Part shown: piece by piece, positions 33,994 to 58,087 of the stretch
Layout: every line of letters starts with the position of its first letter
How positions within the stretch are numbered: the first letter of the stretch is position 1
Virus record (IMG/VR): IMGVR_UViG_2880395615_000008
Source of the DNA: a virus
Lineage: Duplodnaviria > Heunggongvirae > Uroviricota > Caudoviricetes
Strand: one strand, 5' to 3'
DNA length: 64,000 nt
Made by a program: the position numbers and the translations under genes
Notes under the pieces: model-generated
Told to the model about the DNA's origin: nothing
The model's input: the letters and a program-made list of their open reading frames with translations, nothing else
Databases searched by the model: none

Positions 33994-34238
33994 ATTCATT
34001 ACGATATGGGAATTCCCATATCGGGTAAAAACGGTTTGCGGTAAAGCGAGAGTTAAGTAGAATTGCTGCGGGTGCTTGAGGCTATCTGCCTCGGGCATGA
34101 ACACCAACGGCAGATAGAGAAAAGCCCCAGTTAACATTACGCGTCCGGCAAGACGCTTAACATTAATCTGAGGCCATATCTATGCTCTACACACGTAGGT
34201 TAGCCTCTTACGTGCCGAAAGGCAAGGAGAAGCAGGCT

Positions 34239-34394
34239 ATGAAGCAGCAAAAGGCGATGCTAATCGCCCTGATCGTCATCTGTTTAACCGTCATAGTGAC
34301 GGCACTGGTAACGAGGAAAGACCTCTGCGAGGTACGAATCCGAACCGGCCAGACGGAGGTCGCTGTCTTCACAGCTTACGAACCTGAGGAGTAA
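34239..34394 (+). CDS. hok: Hok/Gef-family type I toxin (51 aa; HokD/RelF-like)
   Basis: MKQQKAMLIALIVICLTVIVTALVTRKDLCEVRIRTGQTEVAVFTAYEPEE matches remembered HokD; upstream in-frame extension from 34182; terminator hairpin after the gene. Confidence 0.85.
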   Translation: MKQQKAMLIALIVICLTVIVTALVTRKDLCEVRIRTGQTEVAVFTAYEPEE

Positions 34395-36247: not shown

Positions 36248-36622
36248 ATGCTCATAGATTTGGTTTTACCTTACCCGCCGACGGTGAACACTTACTGGCG
36301 ACGCCGTGGCAGCACATATTTTGTATCAAAAGCCGGGGAGCGTTATCGCCGGGCAGTGGCGCTTATTGTTCGCCAGCAGCGACTGAAATTAAGCCTGTCC
36401 GGACGGCTGGCAATAAAAATTATTGCAGAGCCACCGGATAAGCGCCGCCGTGACCTGGACAATATTCTGAAAGCACCGCTGGATGCGCTGACGCACGCGG
36501 GGTTGTTAATGGACGATGAGCAGTTTGATGAAATCAATATTGTACGTGGAAAGCCAGTATCTGGTGGACGTCTGGGGGTGAAGATTTACCCCATAATGCT
36601 TGAAGGGCAGGTCAAAAAATGA
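36248..36622 (+). CDS. rusA: Holliday junction resolvase RusA
   Basis: 124 aa; ...PPDKRRRDLDNILKAPLDALTHAGLLMDDEQ... matches the RusA family. Confidence 0.85.
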   Translation: MLIDLVLPYPPTVNTYWRRRGSTYFVSKAGERYRRAVALIVRQQRLKLSLSGRLAIKIIAEPPDKRRRDLDNILKAPLDALTHAGLLMDDEQFDEINIVRGKPVSGGRLGVKIYPIMLEGQVKK

Positions 36623-37440
36623 AACTGGAAGATTTACCGAAATACTACTCCCCAAAATCCCCTGGCCTGACCGATGCATCGGCCTCAACGTCAAAAGATG
36701 CGCTGAGTATCACTGATGTGATGGCCGCGCAGGGCATGACACAGAATCGGGCTGAGATGGGGTTTTCTGCGTTCCTTGGGAAAATGGGCATTAGTATGAA
36801 TGACAGAGAGCGGGCAACAGAATTGCTGACAGAATATGCACTCAGTCGGTGTGATCGCGTGGCGGCGTTAAGAAAACTCCCGGCAGAAATAAAACCGGCA
36901 GTGATGCGTATTATGGCTTCGTATGCGTTTGAAGATTATGCCCGTAGCGCGGCGAGCAAAAAACAGTGCCCCTGCTGTCACGGAAAAAAATTTATTGAAA
37001 GCGAGGTTTTTACAAACAAGATCCAGTATCCGGATGGTAAGCCGCCAGTGTGGGCAAAGTGCACAAAAGGCGTGTATCCGTCTTACTGGGAGGAATGGAA
37101 AAAAGTCAGGGAGGTGGTAAAAGTTGCCTGTCCGGAGTGTGGCGGAAAGGGTGAGGTTTCCACCGCCTGTAAGGATTGCCGTGGGCGTGGTGTCGCCATT
37201 CATCGTGAAGAGTCGGTAAAACGTGGTATGCCTGTTATCAGAGACTGCCAGCGTTGTGGTGGTCGTGGCTGTGAAAGACTACCATCAACGGAGGCATTTA
37301 ATGCCATATGTAATGTAACCGATGCCATATCTCTTGATACATGGAAAAAAACAGTTAAACGTTTTTACGATACGCTGGTGGTGCAGTTTGATATTGAAGA
37401 AGCATGGGCAGAACAACAACTGAAAAAGGTGACCAGATAG
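36619..37440 (+). CDS. Late-gene antiterminator Q-like protein (QuuQ-like) with DnaJ-type CxxCxGxG zinc-finger repeats
   Basis: 273 aa immediately upstream of a lambda-like pR'/tR' region; motifs CPCCHGKK, CPECGGKG, CKDCRGRG, CQRCGGRG. Confidence 0.55.
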   Translation: MKLEDLPKYYSPKSPGLTDASASTSKDALSITDVMAAQGMTQNRAEMGFSAFLGKMGISMNDRERATELLTEYALSRCDRVAALRKLPAEIKPAVMRIMASYAFEDYARSAASKKQCPCCHGKKFIESEVFTNKIQYPDGKPPVWAKCTKGVYPSYWEEWKKVREVVKVACPECGGKGEVSTACKDCRGRGVAIHREESVKRGMPVIRDCQRCGGRGCERLPSTEAFNAICNVTDAISLDTWKKTVKRFYDTLVVQFDIEEAWAEQQLKKVTR

Positions 37441-37442
37441 CT

Positions 37443-37473
37443 TTGTTGATTTTTCCCGAATCTGTGGTAAATT
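37443..37473 (+). promoter_or_regulatory. Late promoter pR'-like with adjacent qut-like region
   Basis: TTGTTG ... GGTAAATTTGCCCTAACGATGGGCG resembles lambda pR' (TTGACT ... GGTAAATTTGACTCAACGATGGG). Confidence 0.55.
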
Positions 37474-37519
37474 TGCCCTAACGATGGGCGTTTTATGCCT
37501 GACGTTAGAAGATTTTTTA

Positions 37520-37545
37520 CACCCCGCCGCATGGCGGGTTTTTTA
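37520..37545 (+). terminator. tR'-like intrinsic terminator ending a short leader (6S-like) RNA
   Basis: CCCCGCCGC-ATG-GCGGG hairpin + TTTTTT about 50 nt downstream of the pR'-like -10. Confidence 0.6.
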
Positions 37546-37666
37546 TGACTGAAATCGCGTCAGTACAGTAAACGCGCTGGTGGCGGTGAATACCGGTCTT
37601 TCAGCTTGCTGGCTTTTTTGACAAGAGTTATTGGTGTGTCACGTTAACCGAAAAAGGGAAAAAGAC

Positions 37667-37864
37667 ATGCTGAAACAGCAGGATATGACAGAAACCGCCA
37701 GAGCAGTGTTTAATGAATTAAGCGTCACCGAACCGGCGACAGTCGGGGAGATTGCGCAGAATACTTACCTTTCACGCGAACGCTGCCAGTTAATACTGAC
37801 CCAGCTTGTTATGGCGGGTCTGGCAGACTATCAGTTCGGTTGTTACAGACGCCTTCAGTCCTGA
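37667..37864 (+). CDS. Hypothetical small protein (65 aa), first ORF of late operon; terminator-like hairpin follows
   Basis: ORF from ATG 37667; GCCTTCAG-TCC-TGAAGGC hairpin + T-run at about 37845-37875. Confidence 0.4.
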   Translation: MLKQQDMTETARAVFNELSVTEPATVGEIAQNTYLSRERCQLILTQLVMAGLADYQFGCYRRLQS

Positions 37865-38014
37865 AGGCTTTTTTATTTGTGGTAAATGGGCGGCTGGTGG
37901 GTGTTAGGGGCACTCACCAGCCATCTGCTCATGCGTCTGGATCACAAGCAAACCTCAGGCCCACTGCTTTGCGCAAAAGCAGAATGAGCCTATCAGAGAC
38001 AGGCTTAATGATCC

Positions 38015-39073: not shown

Positions 39074-39324
39074 TATTGCAGAATTAACCGGGTATCAGGT
39101 ACGCCCCGAAAATTTTAAATGTCTCACAATTCAGACGGTTGACAGTTGTCTGGTTTGCGGGGAGTTTGTTAAAAGAAACTGGCATGGTGAATCCCCCTGA
39201 GCGGAGGGGCATATCAGCGCAGGTGTTTCTACTCTATCCTTTCTGTGCGGGTTCAGGTGCTGATACTGAACTCACCGGGAGGCACCCGGCACCATGCATA
39301 TGGTTAACAGACACGTAGCGAAGC

Positions 39325-39350
39325 CCCTCTCCGGAGGGGCTTTTTTTATG
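39325..39350 (+). terminator. Intrinsic terminator-like hairpin (GCCCCTCTCCGGAGGGGC + T7)
   Basis: Perfect GC-rich stem followed by TTTTTTT; a second hairpin AAAAAAAGCCCGCG...CGCGGGC at about 39355-39385. Confidence 0.55.
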
Positions 39351-39576
39351 GGCAAAAAAAGCCCGCGCTGGGAGACGCGGGCGGCAAGGAATAAACAACA
39401 AAACGTGAAGTAATATTTCAGCTGGCGAATAATACCCCATGGTAATCACTCTGCGCAACTGCGCGGCCTTTTTCGAATTGCGGGCTGTAAGTCTCCCTTC
39501 TGCCATTGTCCTGTAACTTCCGGACTTCAGCCCGCTCTTTATCTGATTCAGTACACTATCCCGGCCGGGAGGATTC

Positions 39577-41523
39577 ATGACATTTAAACATTACGATGTG
39601 GTCAGGGCGGCATCGCCGTCAGACCTTGCTGATGCACTTGCGCAAAAAATTCGTGAAGGATGGCAACCATACGGTGGGCCGTTTTCTTCGTATACGGATG
39701 ATGGCGCAGCACTTATTCAGGCGATTGTCGCAGAAGGTGATGTGAGCACACCTGTTGTGGTGAAGCCGACAGGTGGAGAAGGTGCAGTAATCAGTGCCAC
39801 CAGCGACCCGGAGTATTACTTTGTTGTGGTTCTGGCGGGGCAGTCAAACAGCATGGCATATGGTGAAGGCCTTCCGCTGCCGGAGACATATGACCGTCCG
39901 GACCCGCGTATTAAGCAGCTGGCGCGCCGCAGTACGGTGACACCGGGCGGTGTCGCCTGTAAATATAACGACATCATTCCGGCGGACCATTGTCTGCATG
40001 ATGTGCAGGACATGAGCCGCCTTAACCATCCGAAAGCGGACCTGTCAAAGGGGCAGTACGGAACCGTGGGGCAGGGGCTGCATATCGCCAAAAAATTGCT
40101 GCCGTTTATACCGGCGAATGCGGGCATTCTGCTGGTTCCGTGCTGTCGTGGTGGTTCAGCGTTCACCACCGGAGCCGATGGCACATACAGTGACGCGAGT
40201 GGTGCCTCGGAGAATTCAACCCGCTGGGGTGTGGACAAGCCGCTGTATAAGGACCTTATCGGTCGAACAAAAGCAGCACTGAAGAAGAATCCGAAAAATG
40301 TGCTGTTTGCCGTGGTGTGGATGCAGGGGGAATTTGATTTTGGCGGTACGCCGGTAAATCACGCCGCACAGTTTGGTGCGCTGGTTGATAAATTCCGTGC
40401 AGACCTGGCGGATATGGCAGGCCAGTGCGTCGGTGGCTCTGCTGGCGGTGTTCCCTGGATATGCGGGGACACGACGTATTTCTGGAAGCAGAAGAACGAA
40501 TCCACGTACCAGACGGTGTATGGCAGCTATAAAAACAAAACGGAAAAGAATATCCATTTCGTACCGTTCATGACCGATGAGAACGGGGTGAATGTGCCGA
40601 CGAACAAACCGGAAGAAGACCCGGACATTCCGGGTATCGGATATTACGGTTCGAAATGGCGTGACAGCTCAGCCACCTGGACGTCACAGGACAGGGCGAG
40701 CCATTTCAGCGCCTGGGCACGCCGTGGGATTATTTCCGACCGTCTGGCAACGGCGATTTTGCGCCATGCGGGAAGAGTGGCGCTAAACGCGGGGGCATCA
40801 TCGACAGTATCAGAGGTGCGCCCGTCATCGCCTTCCGGTGCAGAAGCCACAGGCGTCACAACACTGCTCTCTTACCTTGCCAGCGAGTCAGAGGGAAGCC
40901 TGAAAGTACAGGGATGGTCAGCCAGTGGCGGCAGGGCAGAAGTGGTCAGCGATGCGGAGGGAACCGGAGGTAAGGCAGTGAAGCTGACCAAGGAAGCCGG
41001 TAAAAGCAGCTGGGTGCTGGAGTACGCCGCGGGCAACGGTGCGGCTCTGTTACAGAAAGGGGGGCAGATTCGCTGCCGCTTTAAGGTTTCGGGAGCGCTG
41101 GCTGCGAACCAGTATGTTATGGCGTTTTACTGGCCGGTATCTTCACTGCCACAGGGCGTTGCCCTGACCGGAGACGGGGGGAATAACCTGCTGGCAGCGT
41201 TCTACATCCAGACAGATGCAAAAGACCTGAATGTGATGTACCACAATGCGAAAGTGGCGACAAACAACCTGAAACTGGGAACCTTTGGCGCATTTGATAA
41301 CGAATGGCATACGCTGGCTTTCCGCTTTGCCGGGAATAACAGCCTTCAGGTGACGCCGGCTATTGATGGTCAGGATGGCACACCGTTCACGCTGACGCAG
41401 TCACCGGTCAGTGCATTTGCGGCGGATAAACTGCATGTGACAGACATTACCAGGAATGCGACTTACCCGGTACTGATAGACAGCATTGCGGTGGAAGTGA
41501 ACAGCACAGACACTGCGGCATGA
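39577..41523 (+). CDS. SGNH-hydrolase esterase, NanS-p-like (prophage sialate O-acetylesterase)
   Basis: 648 aa; VVVLAGQSNSMAYGEG (GQSN motif); position between Q/methylase and the lysis genes as for nanS-p genes in EHEC prophages. Confidence 0.6.
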   Translation: MTFKHYDVVRAASPSDLADALAQKIREGWQPYGGPFSSYTDDGAALIQAIVAEGDVSTPVVVKPTGGEGAVISATSDPEYYFVVVLAGQSNSMAYGEGLPLPETYDRPDPRIKQLARRSTVTPGGVACKYNDIIPADHCLHDVQDMSRLNHPKADLSKGQYGTVGQGLHIAKKLLPFIPANAGILLVPCCRGGSAFTTGADGTYSDASGASENSTRWGVDKPLYKDLIGRTKAALKKNPKNVLFAVVWMQGEFDFGGTPVNHAAQFGALVDKFRADLADMAGQCVGGSAGGVPWICGDTTYFWKQKNESTYQTVYGSYKNKTEKNIHFVPFMTDENGVNVPTNKPEEDPDIPGIGYYGSKWRDSSATWTSQDRASHFSAWARRGIISDRLATAILRHAGRVALNAGASSTVSEVRPSSPSGAEATGVTTLLSYLASESEGSLKVQGWSASGGRAEVVSDAEGTGGKAVKLTKEAGKSSWVLEYAAGNGAALLQKGGQIRCRFKVSGALAANQYVMAFYWPVSSLPQGVALTGDGGNNLLAAFYIQTDAKDLNVMYHNAKVATNNLKLGTFGAFDNEWHTLAFRFAGNNSLQVTPAIDGQDGTPFTLTQSPVSAFAADKLHVTDITRNATYPVLIDSIAVEVNSTDTAA

Positions 41524-41880: not shown

Positions 41881-42126
41881 ATGTCAGAAATTACATCCCT
41901 GGTCACTGCTGAGGCAGTGAAGGAAGTCCTGCGCTCTGAAGAAGTCCGGAGTGCACTGAAACAGAAACTCCGCCAGAATCTTGAGTCGCGTCTTGATGCA
42001 GAAGTGGATGCTATTCTGGATGAACTGCTGGGCGCACCGGCAGTTCCTGAGCCGGAAGGTATCGCGGGTGAGGGGAGTGCTTCAGATGGCGGTGAACCCA
42101 CACCTGACAGCGACATGATGATGTAA
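41881..42126 (+). CDS. Hypothetical acidic protein (81 aa)
   Basis: [30 protein letters not shown]...; internal start of ORF 41707..42126. Confidence 0.4.
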
Positions 42127-42202
42127 GCATGCGCAAGGGGCCATCGGTGTGTGCCGGTGGTCTTTATATTGTTGTGAGCTTCCGGATTGCGGGAGACGGG
42201 GT

Positions 42203-42418
42203 ATGTACCAGATGGAAAAAATCACAACAGGTGTGTCATACACCACGTCAGCGGTGGGAACGGGCTACTGGTTCCTGCAGTTGCTGGACAGGGTTTCCCC
42301 GTCTCAGTGGGCGGCAATAGGCGTGCTGGGGAGTCTGCTGTTTGGGCTGCTGACATATCTGACGAACCTGTATTTCAAGATTAAAGAAGACCGGCGTAAG
42401 GCGGCACGGGGAGAGTAA
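42203..42418 (+). CDS. S: Holin, phage-21 S-like (pinholin type) with dual-start motif
   Basis: [71 protein letters not shown] closely resembles S21; Met1 and Met4 as alternative starts. Confidence 0.85.
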
Positions 42419-42422
42419 GCTG

Positions 42423-42956
42423 ATGAGCAGGAAACTCCGCTATGGTTTATCGGCTGCCGTTCTGGCGCTGATTGCCGCAGGTGCTTCTGCGCCTGAAATC
42501 CTCGACCAGTTTCTGGATGAAAAGGAAGGTAACCACACCACGGCATACCGTGATGGTACGGGTATCTGGACCATCTGCCGCGGTGCCATCCTGGTGGATG
42601 GTAAACCTGTCGTCCCGGGCATGAAGTTGTCGAAGGAAAAATGCGACCAGGTTAACGCCATTGAGCGTGATAAGGCGCTGGCATGGGTGGAGAAAAACAT
42701 CAAAGTGCCGCTGACCGAACCCCAGAAAGCGGGGATCGCGTCATTCTGTCCGTACAACATTGGTCCCGGTAAGTGTTTCCCGTCGACGTTTTACAGACGA
42801 ATTAATGCAGGTGATCGAAAAGGTGCCTGCGAAGCTATTCGCTGGTGGATTAAGGACGGTGGCAGAGACTGCCGTATTCGTTCAAACAACTGTTACGGTC
42901 AGGTATCCCGTCGTGACCAGGAGAGCGCGCTGGCGTGCTGGGGAATCGACAGATAA
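42423..42956 (+). CDS. R: SAR endolysin (lysozyme with N-terminal signal-anchor-release domain)
   Basis: N-terminal weakly hydrophobic LSAAVLALIAAGASAPEIL then lysozyme-like ...EKEGNHTTAYRDGTGIWTICRGA... Confidence 0.85.
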   Translation: MSRKLRYGLSAAVLALIAAGASAPEILDQFLDEKEGNHTTAYRDGTGIWTICRGAILVDGKPVVPGMKLSKEKCDQVNAIERDKALAWVEKNIKVPLTEPQKAGIASFCPYNIGPGKCFPSTFYRRINAGDRKGACEAIRWWIKDGGRDCRIRSNNCYGQVSRRDQESALACWGIDR

Positions 42957-43226
42957 GCAGAATATTTTGCTGAAAAATGAGGTTTGCTTACATGGATGGA
43001 TGACACGAAATCCTGCAAATTGGCAAAATGTAAGTGAATAAAGTCAAAACAGTTGTTTAACACTCAGGCACCGTAATGATGCCTTTGTCATTTCTGCGCA
43101 TCTCACGCGCATCTCACAACACAGAACCTTTCAGGATGACCCTTGAGGATACCGGTTTGGCTGTCGGTGCCTTTCTGTGGGCTGGATTCCTGTGAGACAA
43201 GGTTCATCACTAAAAGGAAATAACCG

Positions 43227-43796
43227 ATGAATATGATGGCCGTGCCGTTTCACGGCAACTCTCTTTATGTAGTTAACCATAATGGCGAACCATACGTTCC
43301 CATGAAACCTGTCGTTGCGGGGATGGGGCTGGCCTGGCAATCACAGTTGGCTAAGTTAAGACAGCGTTTTGCGTCAACTATAACGGAAATCGTTATGGTT
43401 GCTGAGGATGGGAAACAACGCAATATGGTGTCCATGCCACTTCGAAAACTTGCCGGCTGGCTACAAACCATTAATCCCAACAAAGTAAAACCCGAAATCC
43501 GCGATAAGGTCATCCGGTATCAGGAAGAGTGCGACGATGTTCTTTACGAGTACTGGACGAAGGGTTTTGTCGTTAATCCCCGTAAAATGAGCGTGATGGA
43601 AGAACTCAACCAGGCTTGTGCTGACATGAAACGGGATAAAAACATTGCCAGTGTGTTTGCTACCGGGCTGAATGAGTGGAAACAGGTTAAAGCCGCGCAT
43701 GTATCAAAAATCCGTACGCTGGTAAATGAAGCGAATATGCTGATTGATTTTGTCCTGGCTGATACAGGCAAAGGGAAAATAACAAAGGCGGATTGA
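43227..43796 (+). CDS. Antirepressor-like protein (P22 AR N-terminal-type domain)
   Basis: 189 aa; ...AVPFHGNSLYVVNHNGEPYVPMKPVVAGMGLAWQSQ... typical of the phage antirepressor N-terminal domain. Confidence 0.55.
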   Translation: MNMMAVPFHGNSLYVVNHNGEPYVPMKPVVAGMGLAWQSQLAKLRQRFASTITEIVMVAEDGKQRNMVSMPLRKLAGWLQTINPNKVKPEIRDKVIRYQEECDDVLYEYWTKGFVVNPRKMSVMEELNQACADMKRDKNIASVFATGLNEWKQVKAAHVSKIRTLVNEANMLIDFVLADTGKGKITKAD

Positions 43797-43942
43797 TGGG
43801 GTGGCTAATGATATCAGATAAACTCATAACGCTGGTGAAGAGCCTCTGTGTACTTGTCGGCATTTCATTTTTAGTCATGCTGGTTGCCATTTTCTTTTCC
43901 ACCGCCTGGCGAGTCCTGACGTTATCGGGACTGGTGGGGTGA
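43796..43942 (+). CDS. Small membrane peptide (48 aa) between antirepressor and Rz
   Basis: ATG overlapping upstream stop (TGATG); [48 protein letters not shown]. Confidence 0.35.
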
Positions 43943-43949
43943 AAGAGAG

Positions 43950-44417
43950 ATGAACCGTGTTCTGTGTGTGGTGATTATTGTCCTGGCGGTTGGCTGTGGT
44001 GCGCTGTGGCTGGCAACAAACCATTACCGTGACAACGCGCTCACCTACAAAGCGCAGCGTGATAAAAAAGCCAGAGAGCTGGAACAGGCGAATGCCACCA
44101 TTACTGACATGCAGGTGCGCCAGCGTGATGTTGCTGCGCTCGATGCAAAATACTCGAGGGAGTTAGCCGATGCGAGAGCTGAAAATGAAACTCTGCGTGC
44201 TGATGTTGCCGCTGGTCGTAAGCGCCTGCGGATCAACGCCACCTGCTCCGGTACCGTGCGTGAAGCCACCGGCACCTCCGGCGTGGATAATGCAACCGGC
44301 CCCCGACTGGCAGACACCGCTGAACGGGATTATTTCATCCTCAGAGAACGGTTGATGACAATGCAGAAGCAGCTGGAAGGGGCACAGGACTATATCCGCA
44401 CTCAGTGCCTGAACTAA
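43950..44417 (+). CDS. Rz: Spanin inner-membrane subunit Rz
   Basis: ...[45 protein letters not shown]... very close to lambda Rz. Confidence 0.9.
44170..44355 (+). CDS. Rz1: Spanin outer-membrane lipoprotein Rz1, embedded in +1 frame within Rz
   Basis: Lipobox LVVSAC and proline-rich mature region ...[33 protein letters not shown]. Confidence 0.85.
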
Positions 44418-44667
44418 GTTTTGCTGATGCGCCGTATCGTCACCGTATTCTTGCATTAACAGAGACCGCAGCCCGACAGGGAGACTCCTCTGCGAGAGTG
44501 TGCGGGGATAATCAAAAACGATACACACCGGGGTTTACCGCGTTAACGGAGCGCGGTGTTGTCCCCTCATAGTCGCCAGTCCGGTGCGATGGTGGAAGAA
44601 ACTGGATTTTGTTGCAAATGATAACCATTATCATTTTTTGCGGGTCCTCCTGGTGGGGTGGGCCTGA

Positions 44668-44690
44668 ACACGGGGCGGGCGGCGCGGAAA
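44668..44690 (+). other. cos site (cosN region) of lambda-like packaging
   Basis: CGGGGCGGGCGGCGCG resembles lambda cosN (GGGCGGCGACCT); located between Rz and the Nu1-like gene, followed by AT-rich cosB-like DNA. Confidence 0.45.
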
Positions 44691-44831
44691 AAGGCGCATT
44701 TTTTGATTTTTATGGCACCATCACCACCAGTGTAAGTTGTTGATATATAGAAAAATAAAAATTTTTAGTGTCGAGTCTGGTTGTTTTTTGTTCATCACTG
44801 GTGTGTGTTTACATAATTTTCAGGGGGAGTT

Positions 44832-45308
44832 ATGGATCGTGAATTAAAAAATCTGCATCTGAATATTTCCCAACTGGCCGCATTATCCGGTGCTCATCGA
44901 CAGACTGTTGCGGCTCGGGTAAAAAACATAAGCCCAGCCGGTGGTCATGAGAGCAATCTCAAACTGTACCGACTGACAGATATCCTTGCCGAGCTGATGA
45001 AAGCTCCTCTGCCTGTAGATAACGAGGAAATGGATCCTCATGCGCGTAAAGCATGGTACCAGTCAGAACGTGACCGACTGAAATTTGAGCAGGAAACTGG
45101 TCAGCTTGTGCCAGTCAGTGATGTCAGGCGGTCCTTTTCTGTCGTGGTGAAAGCGATAGTTCAGGTACTGGAAACCTGGCCTGACCGGCTGGAGAGGGAC
45201 AGGGGGTGGACCGCATCACAACTGAATGAAGTACAGATTGTGGTTGATGAGATCCGCGACACACTGGAAAAGGCAGTCATTGACTGTTGTGATGAGGCCG
45301 ATATGTGA
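44832..45308 (+). CDS. Terminase small subunit (Nu1-like)
   Basis: N-terminal HTH ...LNISQLAALSGAHRQTVAARV...; directly precedes large terminase. Confidence 0.75.
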   Translation: MDRELKNLHLNISQLAALSGAHRQTVAARVKNISPAGGHESNLKLYRLTDILAELMKAPLPVDNEEMDPHARKAWYQSERDRLKFEQETGQLVPVSDVRRSFSVVVKAIVQVLETWPDRLERDRGWTASQLNEVQIVVDEIRDTLEKAVIDCCDEADM

Positions 45309-47428
45309 ATCAGGTGAACGAGAGCCATAGCCGCGCATCCGATATCTGGCGCGAAGTGGCCTCGCTGTTTCGCCCACCCAGCCGGTTACCAGTAGCGGAA
45401 GCCATCAGGCGTTATATGCGGGTTCCACGGGGAGCCAATACTTCCGGTCCGTGGGAGTCATCGCTGACGCCCTATATGATTGACCCCATTAATACATTAT
45501 CAGCCCGTGAATATGACGCGGTGGTGTTTGTGGGACCTGCGCGAACCGGGAAAACCGAAGGGCTGATTGATGGCTGGATTGTGTACGGCATCATCTGTGA
45601 TCCGGCGGATATGCTGGTGGTGCAGATGACTGAGACGAAGGCGCGTGAGCATTCCAGAACGCGTCTTTCCAGGACGTTTCGCCACAGTCCGGAGGTCAGC
45701 AAGCGCCTCAGTCCTTCCCGTAATGACAACAACGTCCACGATAAAATGTTTCTTGACGGCTCCTTCCTGAAGATTGGCTGGCCGTCGATCACCGTCTTTT
45801 CCTCTTCGGATTACCGTCGTGTGGCGCTGACGGATTATGACCGTTTCCCTGAAAACGTGGACGGGGAAGGGGATGCCTTCACGCTGGCCTCAAAGCGTAC
45901 CACCACCTTTATGTCCTCGGGGATGACCCTGGTCGAGAGTTCACCGGGGCGGGATATCACCGATACCAAATGGCGTTGTGGTGGCGCACATGAGGCACCG
46001 CCAACAACGGGGATCCTGTCACTGTATAACCGGGGAGACCGCCGCCGGTGGTACTGGCCGTGTCCGCACTGCGGGGAATATTTTCAGCCGGTGATGGATA
46101 ACATGACCGGATACCGGAATAACCCGGATTTTGTGGCTGCCGGTCAGGCTGCCCGTCTGATGTGTCCGCATTGTCGCGGGCTGATCGCCCCTGAGCAGAA
46201 ACGCGAACTGAATAACCAGGGGATCTGGCTTCGTGAAGGTGAACGGGCGGCGGCGGACGGCAGTATCACCGGAACGCCACGAAACTCCCGGATTGCGTCA
46301 TTTTGGATGGAGGGGCCAGCTGCGGCGTTTCAGACCTGGGAACAACTGATTTTTAAACTGCTGGCGGCAGAAGAAGAGTATGAGCGAACCGGCAGTGAAG
46401 AGACCCTGAAAGCGGTGGTGAACACCGATATCGGACGACCCTATCTGCCCCGTTCAGCCACGGAACAGCGTAAAAGTGAACTGCTTGAACAGCGTGCCGA
46501 GCCGTTTCCCCGGCGATCTGTGCCGGATGGTGTGCGTTTTATTGAGGCAACGGTTGACGTACAGGGCGGTAAAAATCGCCGTTTTGTTGTGCAGATCACC
46601 GGATACGGAGAGCAGGGGGAACGCTGGATTGTTGATCGCTACAACATCCGGCATTCACTGCGCTGCAGTCCCAACGGTGAAAGTCTGCCGGTTGATCCGG
46701 CGGCATATCCGGAGGACTGGGATTTGTTGCTGACGGATGTGTTCCATAAAACATGGCCGCTGGCTTCTGATCCGGATGTGCGCATGCGTCTGATGGCCAT
46801 GGCGGTGGATACGGGAGGGGAAGCCGGGGTGACAGATAACGCCTATCGTTTCTGGCGTCGTTGCCGGAGTGACGGACTGGGCAACAGGGTGTTTCTGTTC
46901 AAGGGGGATGGACTTCGCCGTGACAGGCTGATTAACCGAACCTTCCCGGATAATACCGGCAGAAGTGCCCGCCGTGCCAGAGCCAGTGGCGATGTCGCGC
47001 TGTGGCTGGTTCAGACGGATGCGTTTAAGGATCGTGTAAATAATGCCCTGTGGCGTGACACACCAGGGCCGAACTATATCCACTTTCCCGACTGGCTGGG
47101 GCGGTGGTTTTACGATGAGCTGACCTATGAAGAGCGCGGCAGTGACGGAAAATGGCGAAAACCGGGCAGGGGCGCTAACGAAGCGTTTGACCTGCTGGTT
47201 TATGCGGATGCGCTTGCCGTTCTGCATGGTTACGAAAAGATCCGCTGGCCCTCCGCACCGGACTGGGCACAGCGGGAAACGTGGCTCGTCTTCCCGCAGG
47301 AGCGTTCTGGTGAAACGGTATCCCCGGAACTGACGGCCGGGGCAGAAAAACGCCGTCGCCGGAAGAAAAAACTGCGGACGGAGCGTGCGGAAGATAATCC
47401 ATGGATAACATCAGGAGGCTGGTTGTGA
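45305..47428 (+). CDS. Terminase large subunit (lambda A-like)
   Basis: 707 aa; Walker A-like VFVGPARTGKTEG; Cys cluster WYWPCPHCGEY...CPHCRG. Confidence 0.9.
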   Translation: MNQVNESHSRASDIWREVASLFRPPSRLPVAEAIRRYMRVPRGANTSGPWESSLTPYMIDPINTLSAREYDAVVFVGPARTGKTEGLIDGWIVYGIICDPADMLVVQMTETKAREHSRTRLSRTFRHSPEVSKRLSPSRNDNNVHDKMFLDGSFLKIGWPSITVFSSSDYRRVALTDYDRFPENVDGEGDAFTLASKRTTTFMSSGMTLVESSPGRDITDTKWRCGGAHEAPPTTGILSLYNRGDRRRWYWPCPHCGEYFQPVMDNMTGYRNNPDFVAAGQAARLMCPHCRGLIAPEQKRELNNQGIWLREGERAAADGSITGTPRNSRIASFWMEGPAAAFQTWEQLIFKLLAAEEEYERTGSEETLKAVVNTDIGRPYLPRSATEQRKSELLEQRAEPFPRRSVPDGVRFIEATVDVQGGKNRRFVVQITGYGEQGERWIVDRYNIRHSLRCSPNGESLPVDPAAYPEDWDLLLTDVFHKTWPLASDPDVRMRLMAMAVDTGGEAGVTDNAYRFWRRCRSDGLGNRVFLFKGDGLRRDRLINRTFPDNTGRSARRARASGDVALWLVQTDAFKDRVNNALWRDTPGPNYIHFPDWLGRWFYDELTYEERGSDGKWRKPGRGANEAFDLLVYADALAVLHGYEKIRWPSAPDWAQRETWLVFPQERSGETVSPELTAGAEKRRRRKKKLRTERAEDNPWITSGGWL

Positions 47429-47637
47429 GCACAGAAGAAGCCAGAGAAATGATACAGCGGTACCGTGAAGCGGAAATGGCCGTACTGGAGGGAAAGTCTG
47501 TCACCTTCAACGGGCAGCAACTGACGCTGGAAAGCCTTTCTCAGATCCGCGCCGGACGTCAGGAGTGGGAACGCAGGCTTGCCGCGATGGTGAGCCGCAG
47601 GCGGGGAAAACCGGGATTTAAACTGGCGAGGTTTTAA
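47401..47637 (+). CDS. Head-tail joining protein W-like
   Basis: Small ORF between terminase and portal; ...MAVLEGKSVTFNGQQLTLESLSQIRAG... parallels lambda gpW; true start may be 47449. Confidence 0.6.
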   Translation: MDNIRRLVVSTEEAREMIQRYREAEMAVLEGKSVTFNGQQLTLESLSQIRAGRQEWERRLAAMVSRRRGKPGFKLARF

Positions 47638-49139
47638 TGGCAATTATTGATGATGTGATCGGCGTGTTTTCCCCCGGGTGGAAAGCAGCCAGACTGCGTT
47701 CAAGGGCGTTAATCATGGCCTATGAGGCGGTGAAACCGACCCGGACACATAAAGCCCGGCGGGAAAATCGCTCTGCTGATCAGCTCAGTAAATACGGTGC
47801 GGTTTCCCTGCGGGAGCAGGCCCGTTTTCTGGATATCAATCATGACCTGGTGATTGGTGTGTTTGACAAGCTGGAAGAGCGGGTGATTGGTGCCAGGGGA
47901 ATTATTGTGGAGCCTCAGCCATTACGAAAAAACGGGGAAATGGCGGCTGAGCTGGCTGCGGATATCCGCCGTTTGTGGGCTGAATGGTCCGTGAGTCCGG
48001 ATGTGACAGGGCAGTATACCCGTCCTGTGCTTGAACGTTTACTGCTGCGGACCTGGCTGCGGGATGGTGAAGTGTTTGCGCAGATGGTCAGTGGTGCGGG
48101 AAACGGTCTGGAACGGACAGCGGGAGTGCCATTCTGGCTTGAGGCGATGGAGCCGGATTTTGTTCCCATGCGCACTGATGAATCCGCCGGACTGAATCAG
48201 GGGGTTTTTCTTGATGAGTGGGGAAGACCGAAAAAATATCTGGTTTATAAAAATTATCCGGTCAGCGGCCGGCAGAGTGATACGAAAGAAATCGCTGCCG
48301 GAAAAATGATCCACCTGAAGTTCACTCGTCGTCTGCATCAGACGCGAGGCTCATCCATGTTATCGGGGGTGCTGATGCGGATCAGTGCCCTTAAGGAGTA
48401 TGAGGATGCGGAACTGACAGCGGCGCGTATTGCTGCGGCGCTGGGACTGTATATCCGTAAAGGTGACGGACAGGACTATGAAGATCCGGGGATCAAAGAG
48501 ACCGAGCGGGAAGTCCATATCACCCCGGGTATTATTTATGACGATTTGCGCAAGGGCGAGGATATCGGCATGGTCAAATCTGACCGTCCCAATCCCAACC
48601 TTGAAACTTTCCGCAACGGCCAGTTGCGTGCAGTGGCAGCAGGCAGTCGTCTGAGTTTTTCCAGTGCGGCGCGTAACTATAACGGCACCTACAGCGCCCA
48701 GCGGCAGGAGCTGGTCGAGTCCACGGATGGTTACCTGATCCTGCAGGACTGTTTTATTGGCGCGGTAACCCGCCCGGTGTACCGGACATGGCTGAATATG
48801 GTGGTTGCGGCAGGTCTGCTGAAAATTCCGGCGGATGTGGAGATGAAAACGCTATATAACGCGACGTATTCCGGTCCGGTGATGCCGTGGATCGACCCGG
48901 TTAAGGAAGCTGAAGCCTGGAGAATTCAGATCCGGGGTGGTGCAGCGACAGAATCTGACTGGGTGCGTGCCGGCGGGCGCAATCCGGATGAGGTCAAACG
49001 TCGCCGCAAGGCTGAAATTGATGAAAACAGCAGACTGGGGCTGGTCTTTGATACTGACCCCGTCAACGACAAAGGAGGCAACAGTGCCGGAACTGAACAA
49101 CAGCGTCAGCAGGCCACCGACAGCCAGCATGAAGAATAA
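47637..49139 (+). CDS. Portal protein (lambda B family)
   Basis: 500 aa ORF between W and the protease-capsid gene. Confidence 0.85.
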   Translation: MAIIDDVIGVFSPGWKAARLRSRALIMAYEAVKPTRTHKARRENRSADQLSKYGAVSLREQARFLDINHDLVIGVFDKLEERVIGARGIIVEPQPLRKNGEMAAELAADIRRLWAEWSVSPDVTGQYTRPVLERLLLRTWLRDGEVFAQMVSGAGNGLERTAGVPFWLEAMEPDFVPMRTDESAGLNQGVFLDEWGRPKKYLVYKNYPVSGRQSDTKEIAAGKMIHLKFTRRLHQTRGSSMLSGVLMRISALKEYEDAELTAARIAAALGLYIRKGDGQDYEDPGIKETEREVHITPGIIYDDLRKGEDIGMVKSDRPNPNLETFRNGQLRAVAAGSRLSFSSAARNYNGTYSAQRQELVESTDGYLILQDCFIGAVTRPVYRTWLNMVVAAGLLKIPADVEMKTLYNATYSGPVMPWIDPVKEAEAWRIQIRGGAATESDWVRAGGRNPDEVKRRRKAEIDENSRLGLVFDTDPVNDKGGNSAGTEQQRQQATDSQHEE

Positions 49140-51108
49140 ATCCTGGTTCAGGATGCAGGCGGGTGGTCAGGGGGAGGCGGATATTTATATTTATGACGAG
49201 ATTGGTTTCTGGGGAGTTACCGCGAAGCAGTTTGTCAGCGATATGAATGCCCTGGGTGATATCACCCACATTAATCTCCACATCAACTCACCGGGTGGCG
49301 ATGTCTTTGAAGGCATCGCCATTTTTAATGCCCTGAAAAATCACGGTGCGGCCATTACCGTGTATGTGGATGGCGTTGCCGCCTCGATGGCATCCCTGAT
49401 TGCGATGGCCGGTGACACGGTCATTATGCCGGAAAATGCCTTCATGATGATCCATAAACCCTGGGGGATCAGCGGTGGTGATGCGGAGAAAATGCGCACT
49501 TATGCCGAACGTCTGGACAAACTTGAGTCGGTTATGGTGCCGGTATATGCGCAGAAAACCGGAAAAACTACCGATGAAATTGCCGCCATGCTGGCGGATG
49601 AGACCTGGATGTCCGGTGCCGAGTGTCTGGCACACGGATTTGCAGACCAGGTGACGCCAGCCGTTAAGGCAATGGCATGTATTCAGTCAAAACGTACAGA
49701 GGAATTTAAAAAGATGCCGGAATCCATCCGAAATATGATCACGCAGCCATACAACAGTGCCCCGCGTGATACCACAGTGACAATCCCTGCACCGGCGGTA
49801 ACAGAACCATCACCGGTAACGGCAGTGTCTGATGAGGCGACCATTCGCGCCCGCGTTATGGCAGAACAGAAAGCCCGCATGTCAGGCATTAACGATCTGT
49901 TTGCCATGTTCGGCGGTCGCTATCAGACGCTTCAGGCACAGTGCGTGGCTGATCCTGACTGTTCGCTGGAAATGGCCCGTGAACGTCTGCTGAATGAAAT
50001 GGGCAAGGAGTCCTCGCCGACCAACAAAAATACACCGGCTCATATTTATGCCGGAAACGGCAATTTTGTGGGGGACGGGATCCGCCAGGCGATGCTGGCC
50101 CGTGCCGGATTTGAAAATGTCGAGAAGGATAACGCCTATAACGGGATGACCCTGCGTGAATGGGCTCGCATGTCACTGACGGAGCGCGGTATTGGGGTGG
50201 CCAGTTATAACCCCATGCAGATGGTCGGGCTGGCGCTGACGCACAGCACCTCTGATTTTGGCAATATTCTGCTGGATGTGTCGAACAAGGGGCTGATCCA
50301 GGGCTGGGAGGAATCAGAAGAAACCTTCCAGAAGTGGACCCGTAAGGGACGCCTGTCAGACTTCAAAACAGCGTATCGCGTGGGGATGGGCGGTTTTGGT
50401 TCTCTGCGCCAGGTTCGTGAGGGGGCGGAGTATAAATACATCACCACCTCAGATCGCAAGGAGACCATTGCGCTGGCCACTTACGGGGAGATTTTCTCCA
50501 TCACCCGCCAGGCCATTATCAATGATGATCTGAATATGCTGGTGGACGTGCCGATGAAGATGGGGCGTGCGGCGAAGGCAACGATTGGTGACCTGGTCTA
50601 CAAGGTGCTGACGGATAACCCGAAACTGTCCGACGGTAAGGCGCTGTTCCATGCCGATCACAAAAATATTGCCACCGGGGGGATCTCCGTTTCCGGACTG
50701 GATGCGGCCCGTCAGATGATGCGCCTGCAGAAAGAAGGCGATCGTGCCCTGAATATCCGTCCGGCCTTTATGCTGGTACCGGTGGCACTGGAGACGGTGG
50801 CGAACCAGACCATCAAATCGGCCAGTGTGAAAGGGGCGGATGCAAACGCCGGTGTCATTAACCCTATCCAGAACTTTGCTGAGGTGATTGCAGAAGCGCG
50901 TCTTGATGCGGCAGACCCGAAAACCTGGTATCTGGCGGCGGCACAGGGCACTGACACCATTGAAGTGGCCTGGCTGGATGGTGTGGACACGCCATACATT
51001 GATCAGCAGGAAGGTTTCACCACTGACGGCATTGCCACAAAAATCCGTATTGATGCCGGAGTGGCACCACTTGACTGGCGCGGGCTGGTGCGTTCGTCGG
51101 TGGCCTGA
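49129..51108 (+). CDS. Prohead protease (ClpP/S14-like) fused to HK97-fold major capsid protein
   Basis: N-terminal ...HINSPGGDVFEGIAIFNALKNHGAAITVYVDGVAASMASLIAMAGD... ClpP-like; long C-terminal capsid-like region; ATG 49129 (MKNKSWF). Confidence 0.75.
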   Translation: MKNKSWFRMQAGGQGEADIYIYDEIGFWGVTAKQFVSDMNALGDITHINLHINSPGGDVFEGIAIFNALKNHGAAITVYVDGVAASMASLIAMAGDTVIMPENAFMMIHKPWGISGGDAEKMRTYAERLDKLESVMVPVYAQKTGKTTDEIAAMLADETWMSGAECLAHGFADQVTPAVKAMACIQSKRTEEFKKMPESIRNMITQPYNSAPRDTTVTIPAPAVTEPSPVTAVSDEATIRARVMAEQKARMSGINDLFAMFGGRYQTLQAQCVADPDCSLEMARERLLNEMGKESSPTNKNTPAHIYAGNGNFVGDGIRQAMLARAGFENVEKDNAYNGMTLREWARMSLTERGIGVASYNPMQMVGLALTHSTSDFGNILLDVSNKGLIQGWEESEETFQKWTRKGRLSDFKTAYRVGMGGFGSLRQVREGAEYKYITTSDRKETIALATYGEIFSITRQAIINDDLNMLVDVPMKMGRAAKATIGDLVYKVLTDNPKLSDGKALFHADHKNIATGGISVSGLDAARQMMRLQKEGDRALNIRPAFMLVPVALETVANQTIKSASVKGADANAGVINPIQNFAEVIAEARLDAADPKTWYLAAAQGTDTIEVAWLDGVDTPYIDQQEGFTTDGIATKIRIDAGVAPLDWRGLVRSSVA

Positions 51109-51195
51109 TAACCGCGTTATCACAATCACTGCCCGAAAGGGCTTTTTTTATGCCTGAAAAACAGCCCCACAGGGGCTGTCCGGAGAAACAGCATT

Positions 51196-51522
51196 ATGGC
51201 GAAAAATTTTGTACAGGACGGTACCACCATTGAACTGGTGAATGCCGGAGATCAGACCATCCTGAGCGGTGCTGCGGTGGTGGTCGGCAGTATGGTGGCC
51301 GTGGCCATTACCGATATTCCTGCCGGTGAGGCCGGTGACGGTTTTGCCGAAGGCGTGTTCCTGCTGCCCAAACAGTCTGCTGACGACATTCAGTCCGGCG
51401 CGGTGGTTTATCTGAAGGACGGGGTTGTGCAGCTGGCTGCAGACGGTGCGGTGGCAGCGGGGGTAGCCTGGGAAAATGCCCCTGCAAACAGCGCCACTGT
51501 GGCGGTAAAAATCAATGTCTGA
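51196..51522 (+). CDS. Small Gly/Ala-rich head protein (DUF2190-like; putative decoration/cement protein)
   Basis: 108 aa immediately after capsid gene. Confidence 0.4.
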   Translation: MAKNFVQDGTTIELVNAGDQTILSGAAVVVGSMVAVAITDIPAGEAGDGFAEGVFLLPKQSADDIQSGAVVYLKDGVVQLAADGAVAAGVAWENAPANSATVAVKINV

Positions 51523-51796
51523 TCTGTTTACGCGAATGTGTTGCCGGATGGACGTGGCGACCGTTCGGGTGATGGGCAAACAGGCGGAGATTAACGGCGT
51601 CGTGTACGACGTGATGCCGGAGGAAGAGTCCGCGGAGATGGGGGCGCTTTCGGGCAGCCAGTTGTCACTGGTGGTGTTTTCAGCCCGGTACCGTCCGGCC
51701 CGTCATGATGTTGTTGTGTTTGCGGGGCGCACACTGACGGTGACCCGTTATGACACGTACAACGGTAAACCCCGGATTTTTGTCGAACAGGAATGA
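51515..51796 (+). CDS. Putative head-tail connector/adaptor protein
   Basis: 93 aa between head and tail-completion genes. Confidence 0.4.
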   Translation: MSDLFTRMCCRMDVATVRVMGKQAEINGVVYDVMPEEESAEMGALSGSQLSLVVFSARYRPARHDVVVFAGRTLTVTRYDTYNGKPRIFVEQE

Positions 51797-52422
51797 GTAT
51801 GGCAATAAAAGGTCTGGCGCAGGCCATGAAAAATCTGGATGCAATTGATCGCCGTGCCGTTCCCCGGGCCTCTGCCACGACACTGAACCGAGTGGCGGGG
51901 GCCATTATTGCGAAAACGGCCTCTTCAGTTGCCAGGGAGCTGGCCGTTCCCCGTCGTCTTATCCGTGCCCGCATCCGGTTAAGTCCGGCACGACCGGATA
52001 AGGTTTACGCAAAGGTTTACATCAATACCGGCAACCTGCCCGCCATCAAACTGGGGGAGGCCCGCGTTCGACTTTCCCGCAGAAAACGGAGAAAGAAAGG
52101 ACAGCGTGCGGCCCTGAAAGGGGGCGGCAGTGTGCTGATTGTGGGGAAAAGACGGATCCCGGACGCCTTTATCACCCGGCTGGCTAACGGACGCTGGCAT
52201 GTGATGCAGCGTATGCCGTGGGCATCATCATCCACCGGCGCGGACAGCAAAGGGAGGCCGAAACGCCACCGTCTGCCGATCGAAGTGGTGAAGATTACGA
52301 CTGCCGGACCGCTGGCAGAAACCTTTGAACGTGAACGGGACCGGATGTACCGGGAAAAATTACCGGCGCAGATGATGAAAGCCATGACGCATCAGTTACG
52401 CCTGGTGCTGAAAAGAAAATGA
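51793..52422 (+). CDS. Z: Tail completion protein Z
   Basis: MSMAIKGLAQAMKNLDAIDRRAVPRA...RRKRRKKGQRAALKGGGSVLIVG...NGRWHVMQR... matches lambda Z. Confidence 0.85.
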   Translation: MSMAIKGLAQAMKNLDAIDRRAVPRASATTLNRVAGAIIAKTASSVARELAVPRRLIRARIRLSPARPDKVYAKVYINTGNLPAIKLGEARVRLSRRKRRKKGQRAALKGGGSVLIVGKRRIPDAFITRLANGRWHVMQRMPWASSSTGADSKGRPKRHRLPIEVVKITTAGPLAETFERERDRMYREKLPAQMMKAMTHQLRLVLKRK

Positions 52423-52434
52423 CTGGGAGGGTGT

Positions 52435-52833
52435 ATGAAACACCGTGAAATACGGGCGGCAGTTCTGTCTGCCCTGAAAGACAATATTTCTGAGAGGGTG
52501 AGCTGGTTTGACGGTCGCCCGGTTTTTATTGATGAACAGGAACTGCCTGCTGTTGCTGTTTACCTGACAGATGCGTCTGCTGCTGACGAGTTCGTTGATG
52601 AGGGAACCTGGGAGGCGACACTGCATATTGAGGTTTTTCTCAGGGCAAAAGAACCGGACTCGGCACTGGATATGTGGATGGAAGAAAAAATTCTTCCTGC
52701 GCTGGAGGCAGTTCCCGGGCTCAGTGCATTACTGCTGAAGATGAATCTTCAGGGGTATGACTACCGCCGGGATGATGAGTTTATGATGTGGGGATCGGCA
52801 GATCTCCTGTGGAAAATTACCTACGAGATGTGA
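52435..52833 (+). CDS. U: Tail terminator protein U
   Basis: [16 protein letters not shown]...[26 protein letters not shown]...GYDYRRDD...KITYEM matches lambda U. Confidence 0.9.
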
Positions 52834-52840
52834 GGACGAT

Positions 52841-53593
52841 ATGGCAACACCAAATCCCCTTGAGCCGGTAAAAGGTGCCGGTACCACTCTGTGGGTTTAC
52901 AACGGCAAGGGTGATGCTTATGCAAACCCGTTGTCAGACGATGACTGGCAGCGACTGGCTAAGGTGAAGGATCTGACGCCGGGCGAGATGACGGCAGAAC
53001 CCTACGATGATAACTACCTGGATGATGAAGACGCGGACTGGACCGCGACCGGGCAGGGGCAGAAGTCTGCAGGAGATACCAGTTTTACGCTGGCCTGGAA
53101 ACCGGGAGAAGAAGGTCAGAAAGGGCTTATAGGCTGGTTTGAAAGCGGGGATGTGCGGGCCTATAAAATCCGTTTCCCAAATGGCACGGTGGATGTGTTC
53201 CGTGGCTGGGTCAGCAGTATCGGTAAGGCCGTGACGGCGAAAGAAGTGATCACCCGCACGGTGAAAGTCACTAACGTGGGCAAACCTTCCGTGGCGGAAG
53301 AACGCAGCGAAATTACGCCGGCCACTGCAATTAAGGTGACACCGACATCCGGTACGGTGGCAAAAGGGAAAACAACCACCCTGACGGTTTCTTTTGAGCC
53401 GGAAAGTGCAACCGACAAGACGTTCAGAGCGGTTTCCGCCGATCCGTCGAAAGCCACCATTAGTGTGAAAGATATGACAATTACGGTAAACGGCGTGGCG
53501 ACAGGTAAGGTGCAGATCCCTGTGGTGAGCGGAAATGGTCAGTTCGCCGCAGTGGCTGAAGTCACCGTTACTGAAGCGGGCGCTGCAGGGTAA
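52841..53593 (+). CDS. V: Major tail protein V (lambda type, C-terminal Ig-like domain)
   Basis: [36 protein letters not shown]... matches lambda V. Confidence 0.95.
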
Positions 53594-53606
53594 ACGGAGG
53601 TAATAC

Positions 53607-54029
53607 ATGTTTCTGAAAACAGAACAATTTGAATATAACGGTGTGTCCGTCACGCTTTCCGAATTGTCTGCGCTGCAGCGGTTTGATTATATGAAGTTTG
53701 TTTCAGACGCAGAACAACAGAAGACAACGAAGCATGATGTCGTGCGCATTAACCAGCGATATCTGGAAACGGCATCCCTGCTTGTGGCGATGTCGCTATG
53801 GCATTCCCATTCCCTCAAAGGCACTCTGGCCTCTCCGGAGACAGAGATGCAGCAGATCCGCCGTGAAGTGATGCTGGGATGGCCTGCTGATGCACTGAAT
53901 CAGGCAACGAACCGGGTGCTTTATCTTTCAGGTATGCTGGATAACCGGCACGATGCCGATCCTGAACCAACCGGGAAAACAGAAGCGACTGAGCCGGTAA
54001 CATCAAAAAAGCATTCGAAGGCGAGCTGA
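53607..54029 (+). CDS. G: Tail assembly chaperone G
   Basis: MFLKTEQFEYNGVSVTLSELSALQRFDYMKF... matches lambda G; slippery A_AAA_AAG near the 3' end. Confidence 0.9.
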   Translation: MFLKTEQFEYNGVSVTLSELSALQRFDYMKFVSDAEQQKTTKHDVVRINQRYLETASLLVAMSLWHSHSLKGTLASPETEMQQIRREVMLGWPADALNQATNRVLYLSGMLDNRHDADPEPTGKTEATEPVTSKKHSKAS

Positions 54030-54364
54030 ACTTTGTCCTGAAACTGGCGCGTGAGATGGGGAGAGCCGACTGGCGCGCCATGCTTGCCGGGATGACATCC
54101 ACCGAATATGCCGACTGGCGACGTTTTTACTGCACGCATTATTTTCAGGATACCCAGCTGGATATGCATTTTTCCGGGCTGATGTACGCCGTACTCAGCC
54201 TGTTTTTTTGCGATCCGGATATGCATCCGGCGGATTTCAGCCTGTTCGCTCCGGAGGCAGAGGAAGGACAGGCGGAGACGCCGGACGAAAATGATGTACT
54301 GATGCAGAAGGCGGCGGGCCTCGCCGGTGGAGTCCGTTTCGGGGAGGAGGGAAGGAGGTTGTGA
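54005..54364 (+). CDS. T: T segment of GT fusion via -1 programmed frameshift
   Basis: AAAAAAG at 54005-54011; -1 frame continues ...KKAFEGELNFVLKLAREMGRADWRAMLAGM... (ORF 54056..54364). Confidence 0.8.
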   Translation, partial: KKAFEGELNFVLKLAREMGRADWRAMLAGMTSTEYADWRRFYCTHYFQDTQLDMHFSGLMYAVLSLFFCDPDMHPADFSLFAPEAEEGQAETPDENDVLMQKAAGLAGGVRFGEEGRRL

Positions 54365-54398
54365 CAGTTATTGATGGTATCAGAGGACATTTCAGGAG

Positions 54399-58077: not shown

Positions 58078-58087
58078 ATCCTGTTTT

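Follow-up and report, generated by a model that had tools for sequence, protein, structure and literature searches.

We analysed a stretch of 64,000 nucleotides of viral DNA (Caudoviricetes; IMG/VR record IMGVR_UViG_2880395615_000008), called the window hereafter, with a focus on the locus at positions 36619-37545. This locus consists of a gene for a 273-residue Q antiterminator, followed by a lambda-like late promoter (pR') and an intrinsic terminator. It lies between rusA and the late genes, the place that Q canonically takes in lambdoid phages. By analogy with well described relatives, we interpret it as the late-gene antitermination switch of an Escherichia coli O157:H7 lambdoid prophage, whose Q represents the long phi80/QuuQ subtype of the lambda Q family, and we assign this interpretation a probability of roughly 0.93.

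The RusA-family gene (36248-36622) is preceded by a DUF968/YdfU gene, as found in a Pfam scan, and its stop codon overlaps the start codon of Q (ATGA). On the 3' side, Q is followed in this order by an open reading frame (ORF) of 65 codons for a winged helix-turn-helix-like protein, an N6/N4 DNA methylase gene, the small RNA STnc100 and a gene for a sialate-esterase-like protein of 648 residues. Holin, lysozyme, terminase, portal, capsid and tail genes come next, and the late genes are correctly oriented 3' of Q. The prophage has its own integrase and excisionase and adjoins a truncated ompW. Positions 36619-37600 are 100% identical to several E. coli O157:H7 chromosomes, in which RefSeq labels the same ORF 'antitermination protein' (WP_000762904.1).

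The Q protein and its family

On sequence grounds, the 273-residue protein belongs to the lambda Q family. It matched the Pfam family PF03589 (Antiterm) with 167.4 bits against a cut-off of 26.7 bits (E = 7.6e-50), and PHROG 127 'anti-termination protein Q-like' with an E-value of 9.7e-112. When the PDB was searched with phmmer, the lambda Q entries 7UBM/7UBN, 4MO1 and 7UBJ-L were returned at 1e-39 to 9e-20 (best match 7ubm_Q, 1.1e-39), and there was no significant match other than lambda Q. Pairwise alignment to lambda Q was gap-free over residues 1-113 and 182-273 with 40% identity, and the functionally mapped residues G39, D106-Y107, S110-A112 and the four arm cysteines were kept. The identity to QuuQ of E. 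coli K-12 was also 40%, and the Q82 family (PF06323) was not matched.

In lambda Q, residues 1-44 refold with NusA into a torus ('nozzle') at the RNA-exit channel of RNA polymerase (RNAP), and G39 is essential; D106-Y107 form the NusA contact region, and S110-A112 contact the beta' zinc-binding domain (ZBD). The 'body' comprises four helices with a helix-turn-helix (HTH; residues 61-113 and 153-207), and residues 114-152 form a zinc-ribbon 'arm' (PMC9388147). The gene and its segments lie as follows:

36619-37440, + strand: Q antiterminator gene, 273 codons plus stop (ORF listing)
36619-36750, + strand: codons 1-44, equivalent of the N-terminal torus segment (gap-free alignment including the invariant G39)
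36961-37158, + strand: insertion relative to lambda Q, 66 residues, 115-180 (alignment to lambda Q)
36967-36990, + strand: Cys pair 1, C117/C120, within the insertion
37129-37152, + strand: Cys pair 2, C171/C174, within the insertion
37159-37275, + strand: zinc-ribbon arm equivalent, residues 181-219 (alignments to lambda Q)
37282-37356, + strand: residues 222-246, PSTEAFNAICNVTDAISLDTWKKTV, likely the HTH region for DNA recognition (aligned with the part of the lambda Q body that has HTH helices H4/H5)

By analogy, residues 1-44 may play the torus role of lambda Q here as well. The arm residues C184/C187 and C210/C213, which are putative zinc ligands, align with C118/C121 and C144/C147 of lambda Q. 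An AlphaFold2 (AF2) model with a mean predicted local distance difference test (pLDDT) score of 71 placed helices at residues 223-233 and 239-272 in the HTH area; the four-helix body with C-terminal HTH and the overall fold were lambda Q-like. The gene order rusA-Q-late genes was found together with a promoter with embedded Q-binding element (QBE), a pause element at +1 to +6 and an intrinsic terminator. The preliminary description had read the locus as a Q antiterminator gene next to a lambda-like pR'/qut/tR'; the PF03589 match, the alignment to lambda Q, the position between rusA and the late genes, and the pR' layout support this reading.

The 87-position PF03589 model matched the protein twice, at residues 24-111 (E = 4.7e-23) and at residues 182-265 (8.2e-27). 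Compared by BLASTP, these two stretches showed no similarity to each other. This rules out a zinc-finger duplication as their source, and the two 'domains' should not be taken as a repeat; the model appears to be composite.

The late promoter, the terminator and the leader RNA

Downstream of Q, the sequence GGTAAATTTGCCCTAACGATGGG (37466-37488) matched GGTAAATTTGACTCAACGATGGG of lambda at 20 of 23 bases (pattern GGTAAATTTG....AACGATGGG). The -10 hexamer TAAATT, the 6-bp spacing and AACGATGGG were identical to those of lambda pR', in keeping with the earlier statement that the downstream DNA resembles lambda pR' 'almost base for base'. Within the window, the pR'-like pattern occurred once, with 0 occurrences expected from shuffles. 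The elements are:

37446-37451, + strand: -35-like hexamer TTGATT with a 16-bp spacer to the -10 (by eye and by positional analogy with lambda pR')
37451-37466, + strand: candidate QBE TTTTCCCGAATCTGTG, between -35 and -10 (conservation across loci with the same HTH region)
37468-37473, + strand: -10 hexamer TAAATT, preceded by TGG with an extended -10-like TG (same as lambda pR')
37480-37485, + strand: putative sigma-dependent pause element AACGAT at +1 to +6, with +1 placed at 37480 (sequence and -10 spacing as in lambda pR')
37523-37545, + strand: tR'-like intrinsic terminator, about +44 to +66 (terminator scan and fold)
37851-37876, + strand: second intrinsic terminator, past the 65-codon ORF (terminator scan)

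AACGAT at +1 to +6 is the established pause element of lambda pR'. By analogy, a pause is expected near +16/+17, at about 37495-37497.

Conservation at the position of the candidate QBE followed the HTH region of Q. Of the loci with an intact downstream region and the same Q HTH region, 9/9 carried TTTTCC[C/G]GAAnnnGTG directly upstream of a T[T/A]AATT -10. These nine comprise E. coli phages as well as Klebsiella, Enterobacter, Pantoea and Salmonella contigs; their Qs are 56-91% identical and share the HTH signature PSTEA..AIC.ITDAISLDTWKK. Further downstream, AACGATGGG was present in eight of them and AATAATGGG in one, and a terminator was found in eight. In loci whose Qs have other HTH regions (lambda, phi80, mEp460/K-12 Qin, ES18), the pause element was kept while the sequence at the QBE position differed. 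This is what would be expected if a QBE co-evolved with its Q. Across all Q-lambda-family loci compared, AACGATGGG was kept in 11 of 14.

While these diverse loci were taken from contigs encoding Q relatives, closer conservation was assessed with IMG/VR relatives that are 94-100% identical. In 78 such loci, the candidate QBE was invariant save for one or two single-base variants. The block of promoter, QBE and pause element was near-invariant throughout, and substitutions clustered in the loop and stem of the terminator. The candidate QBE has a single exact copy within the window, and the GenBank record of phi80 has a Q-binding site annotated at the equivalent position.

The terminator consists of the hairpin CCCGCC-GCAT-GGCGGG at 37523-37538 (6-bp all-GC stem, 4-nucleotide loop) and the following TTTTTTA, whose T-run ends at 37545; this is the tR'-like terminator that the preliminary description had placed at the end of the locus. 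The predicted RNA from 37480 to 37547 folds with -21.9 kcal/mol (z = -3.4). Among 76 related loci, all 15 leader variants formed a hairpin of -10 to -17 kcal/mol that is followed by a T-run, and HK225, ES18 and phi80 have annotated terminators at the equivalent place. An unmodified transcript would end at about +62 to +66. No Rfam family covers the pR'-tR' leader.

A further structure was seen at the start of the leader. The first 27 or so nucleotides of the predicted transcript (37480-37506, + strand) fold into a hairpin at the 5' end, where AACG (+1 to +4) is base-paired with CGUU (+24 to +27). In 10 of 13 lambda-Q-family leaders including that of lambda (also loci L002, L004, L006 and L093-L098), a 5' hairpin of this kind is the minimum free energy structure. 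Its inner-stem sequence varies among lineages, and single-sequence z-scores are modest (-1.2 to -3.1). RNAalifold gave no consensus structure for the 13 leaders because loop lengths differ and the alignment is poor. The hairpin may possibly have a function, such as in the 5'-end stability of the short RNA.

The cysteine motifs and the second Cys4 module

The protein contains the motifs CPCCHGKK (C117), CPECGGKG (C171), CKDCRGRG (C184) and CQRCGGRG (C210). Three of them are canonical CxxCxGxG units, whereas motif 1 is degenerate (CxxCxGxx), so that the three canonical units and the one CxxC unit of the preliminary description were recovered. We compared 108 homologues of 258-277 residues (55-99% identical to the 273-residue Q) from Escherichia, Salmonella, Klebsiella, Enterobacter, Citrobacter, Serratia, Pantoea and other genera. 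C171, C174, C184, C187, C210 and C213 were invariant, and C117 and C120 were at least 90% conserved; the motifs are therefore not due to chance. Most homologues have a fully canonical motif 1, such as CDCCAGQG. One homologue of 337 residues (P0001, encoded outside the window) has an additional N-terminal CPCCRGEK...CPECKGKD module and six Cys motifs in total. Either the inserted module was truly duplicated, or the extra copy is an artefact of assembly or gene calling on the 1814-bp contig.

In the preliminary description, the CxxCxGxG signature was called better known from the DnaJ cysteine-rich domain than from lambda Q. This did not stand, since the lambda Q arm itself has CRDCHGTG and CGRCKGVG, and two CxxCxGxG units are thus a native lambda Q feature. 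Moreover, because phi80 Q and K-12 QuuQ have the four-motif form, the motif set is usual for the family and no DnaJ-like peculiarity.

Motifs 1 and 2 belong to the 66-residue insertion, which is the sole such insertion between the aligned flanks and sits exactly at the body/arm junction of lambda Q. In the AF2 model, strands at residues 125-136 and 159-170 form a long beta-hairpin between the two motifs. Since motifs 3 and 4 match the one zinc site that lambda Q has and the modelled hairpin separates motifs 1 and 2, the zinc sites are probably sequential (1+2, 3+4). We read the insertion as a predicted tandem second zinc ribbon around a long beta-hairpin. The segment alone passed no Pfam cut-off, and the PDB search found no solved structure that covers it. 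With regard to a duplication of the arm, BLASTP of residues 112-181 against 182-226 aligned the Cys knuckles only (E = 0.002 over 29 residues). Compared with the allele of phage vB_EcoS-640R1 (dS = 0.35-0.42), the ratio of nonsynonymous to synonymous substitutions (dN/dS) was 0.075 over residues 114-181 and 0.14 for the whole gene; by this measure, the insertion is under purifying selection.

Among named systems, phi80 Q (gp17, 269 residues; JX871397 41137-41946) is built in the same way, with an N-terminal region, a body, an arm with two further Cys pairs and an HTH, and it has the inserted Cys4 module too (CDCCDGGG ... CKPCNGKG). The two insertions have long conserved stretches in common (FTEAQVFTNKVSYPWGKPPYW...REVVRVKC), and the phi80 leader is also short, with a terminator about 45-75 nucleotides past the start. 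However, the two proteins are only 41% identical overall, arm motif 3 of phi80 Q is SCRCHGKG, its Cys spacing differs, and its pause element is AACGCT instead of AACGAT. The HTH region and the QBE (annotated as TCGCGGA) also differ, which points to a different DNA specificity. In GenBank, phi80 Q is annotated as a late antiterminator, with pR', Q-binding site and terminator marked, and it is reportedly the subject of Guo & Roberts 2004, a paper that PMC9388147 cites.

QuuQ/YdfT of the K-12 Qin prophage (b1559, 250 residues) and the Q of mEp460 belong to the same family, with four Cys pairs and 40% identity, and the AACGATGGG pause element and a short-leader terminator follow downstream of both. 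Unlike the Q analysed here, they have a shorter insertion (about 43 residues) and a different HTH and QBE region (TTTTTCAAAAAATATGG). Lambda Q (207 residues; PDB 4MO1, 7UBJ-7UBN) shares the 40% identity over residues 1-113/182-273, the arm cysteines, G39 and the gene position, and its promoter has an almost identical -10, spacing and pause element. In contrast, it is devoid of the 66-residue second Cys4 module, its QBE is different, and its tR' lies at about +194 versus about +65 here. Q21 (PF06530) and Q82 have the same regulatory role and genome position but resemble it in neither sequence nor structure, and no match to either family was obtained; the three Q families are analogues (PMC9388147).

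The long form is widespread. The same insertion is present in the Qs of HK225, mEp237, mEp460, ES18 (gp73) and SfV. In a tblastn search, 131 of 249 matching phage records covered at least 80% of the query and therefore include the insertion, while short forms of the lambda/P22 type matched in two pieces. Of 5426 complete E. coli genomes, 2642 contain a close relative of the gene at the DNA level (at least 80% nucleotide identity). The Shiga toxin (Stx) 2a phage Stx2_EH1910 carries a Q with 98.9% identity, and downstream of it come the same leader, small ORF and methylase gene and then tRNAs and stx2AB.

The proposed switch, its alternatives and its setting

We infer activity, start site, pause position, NusA dependence and zinc content by analogy with lambda. 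The promoter pR' would fire constitutively with a start near 37480, and RNAP would pause about 16-17 nucleotides downstream through re-binding of sigma70 to the -10-like AACGAT. Without Q, transcription would stop at the 37523-37545 terminator and yield an RNA of about 65 nucleotides, analogous to lambda 6S RNA and StxS (PMC7547250). When present, Q would bind the QBE (TTTTCCCGAATCTGTG) between -35 and -10 with its HTH and zinc-ribbon arm and dock on the paused RNAP at sigma region 4, the beta' ZBD and the flap tip. Together with NusA, its N-terminal 44 residues would refold and form a ring that lengthens the RNA-exit channel. RNAP would then ignore tR' and later terminators and transcribe the methylase, esterase, lysis and morphogenesis genes. 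The terminator at 37851-37876 would be an additional barrier for Q-modified RNAP to read through. In sister phages, the same module would act ahead of stx2AB, which it precedes.

Three observations weigh against this interpretation. A simple sigma70 consensus scan did not call the promoter, because the -35 is weak (TTGATT, 16-bp spacer). AF2 was only moderately confident in the insertion (pLDDT 57-77). Finally, a Salmonella relative (L092) is without the promoter module, which implies that such genes can persist in decayed prophages.

The role that we consider most likely for the second module is that of an extra contact or a spacer at the arm hinge. Beyond this, it may give long Qs of the phi80/QuuQ type a distinct RNAP loading step, so that the long form would be a mechanistic variant of lambda Q. 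Possible examples are an added contact with the beta' ZBD, sigma region 4, upstream DNA or NusA, an altered need for NusA, or an altered arm swing. The insertion does lie at the body/arm junction, the pivot about which the lambda Q arm swings by some 75 degrees, and it adjoins residues 110-112 and 117, which touch the beta' ZBD in lambda Q (PMC9388147). It is also conserved, under apparent purifying selection and absent from all solved structures. However, short and long Qs share the layout of promoter, QBE, pause element and terminator, and the remaining functional segments are all conserved. In addition, phi80 Q is a classical Q according to its GenBank annotation and, as far as the title alone goes, to Guo & Roberts 2004. 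We therefore regard such a mechanistic difference as unlikely and put it forward tentatively. If this holds, lambda Q would be an incomplete model for the Q found with some Stx2a phages.

It is more improbable still that the locus is an inert relic of a cryptic prophage, with an intact ORF and a switch that does not function in this strain. O157:H7 harbours many defective lambdoid prophages, insertion sequence elements and pseudogenes lie nearby in a related strain, and, as mentioned, one homologous locus lost its promoter. Against this, the ORF is full-length, the whole-gene dN/dS is low (0.14), and promoter, QBE, pause element and terminator are intact and near-invariant in the 78 related loci. 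Furthermore, a near-identical module is found in a complete Stx2a phage genome, and the late genes are present in the right orientation.

Some homologues bear database names that suggest a DnaJ-like zinc-finger chaperone or an anti-TRAP-like regulator. The DnaJ cysteine-rich domain (PF00684) is indeed similar in its four zinc-binding CxxCxGxG knuckles per protein. Its zinc centres are nested (repeats 1+4 and 2+3) and differently spaced, whereas those of the Q studied here are predicted to be sequential and flanked by a lambda Q fold. The chance that the names are right is close to nil and the idea effectively refuted: the matches stayed below the curated cut-offs (DnaJ_CXXCXGXG, PF00684, 28.1 bits versus 32.7; TIGR02349, 23 bits versus 377) and were confined to the Cys knuckles, the J-domain family (HPD motif) was absent from Pfam matches at E <= 0.1, and the rest of the protein is lambda Q. 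The 'chaperone protein DnaJ' names on some homologues are misannotations.

Around the locus we noted several further elements. A Hok/Gef type I toxin gene (34230-34394, + strand; PF01848, 1.4e-23; hokD in RefSeq) precedes the DUF968-RusA-Q block. The 65-codon ORF (37667-37864, + strand) is the first gene past tR' and gave weak winged-helix matches (TrmB 0.0013, DprA_WH 0.008); it is kept at the same position in Stx2_EH1910 and in a Pantoea prophage. The STnc100 prophage small RNA (39153-39353, + strand) is a full-length match to Rfam RF02076 (148 bits; gathering score 47). It is flanked by the DNA methylase and esterase genes and has a strong terminator (39320-39343) at its end. The 648-residue late-operon protein (39577-41523, + strand) combines DUF1737, a sialic-acid-specific acetylesterase (SASA) domain and DUF6645, an arrangement that we take to be that of the NanS-p-type esterases of Stx and related prophages.

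Strain 611 matches the central part of the window at 100%, and the window maps to it only over about 21300-42000 and 44400-64000. The first 21 kb or so show blocks of 87-98% identity only, and one of these blocks contains nleH1-2 and nleF in strain 611. The other non-collinear part is 42043-44427; the holin/lysozyme region shows 94% identity, and beyond it the sequences diverge. This non-collinearity indicates mosaic prophage variation among O157 strains.

The element is already known, correctly annotated and very common, and surprise over its motif signature is unwarranted. As a textbook regulatory module that annotation pipelines label correctly, it carries little weight as a discovery. What sets the long Q subtype apart from lambda Q is the second zinc module, which is found in roughly half of the lambda-Q-family proteins and absent from every solved structure. 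Since the allele is very common and at least one Stx2a phage has a near-identical copy ahead of stx2AB, the specificity and strength of its QBE bear on toxin and late-gene expression, and the practical relevance of the locus, though modest, lies there.
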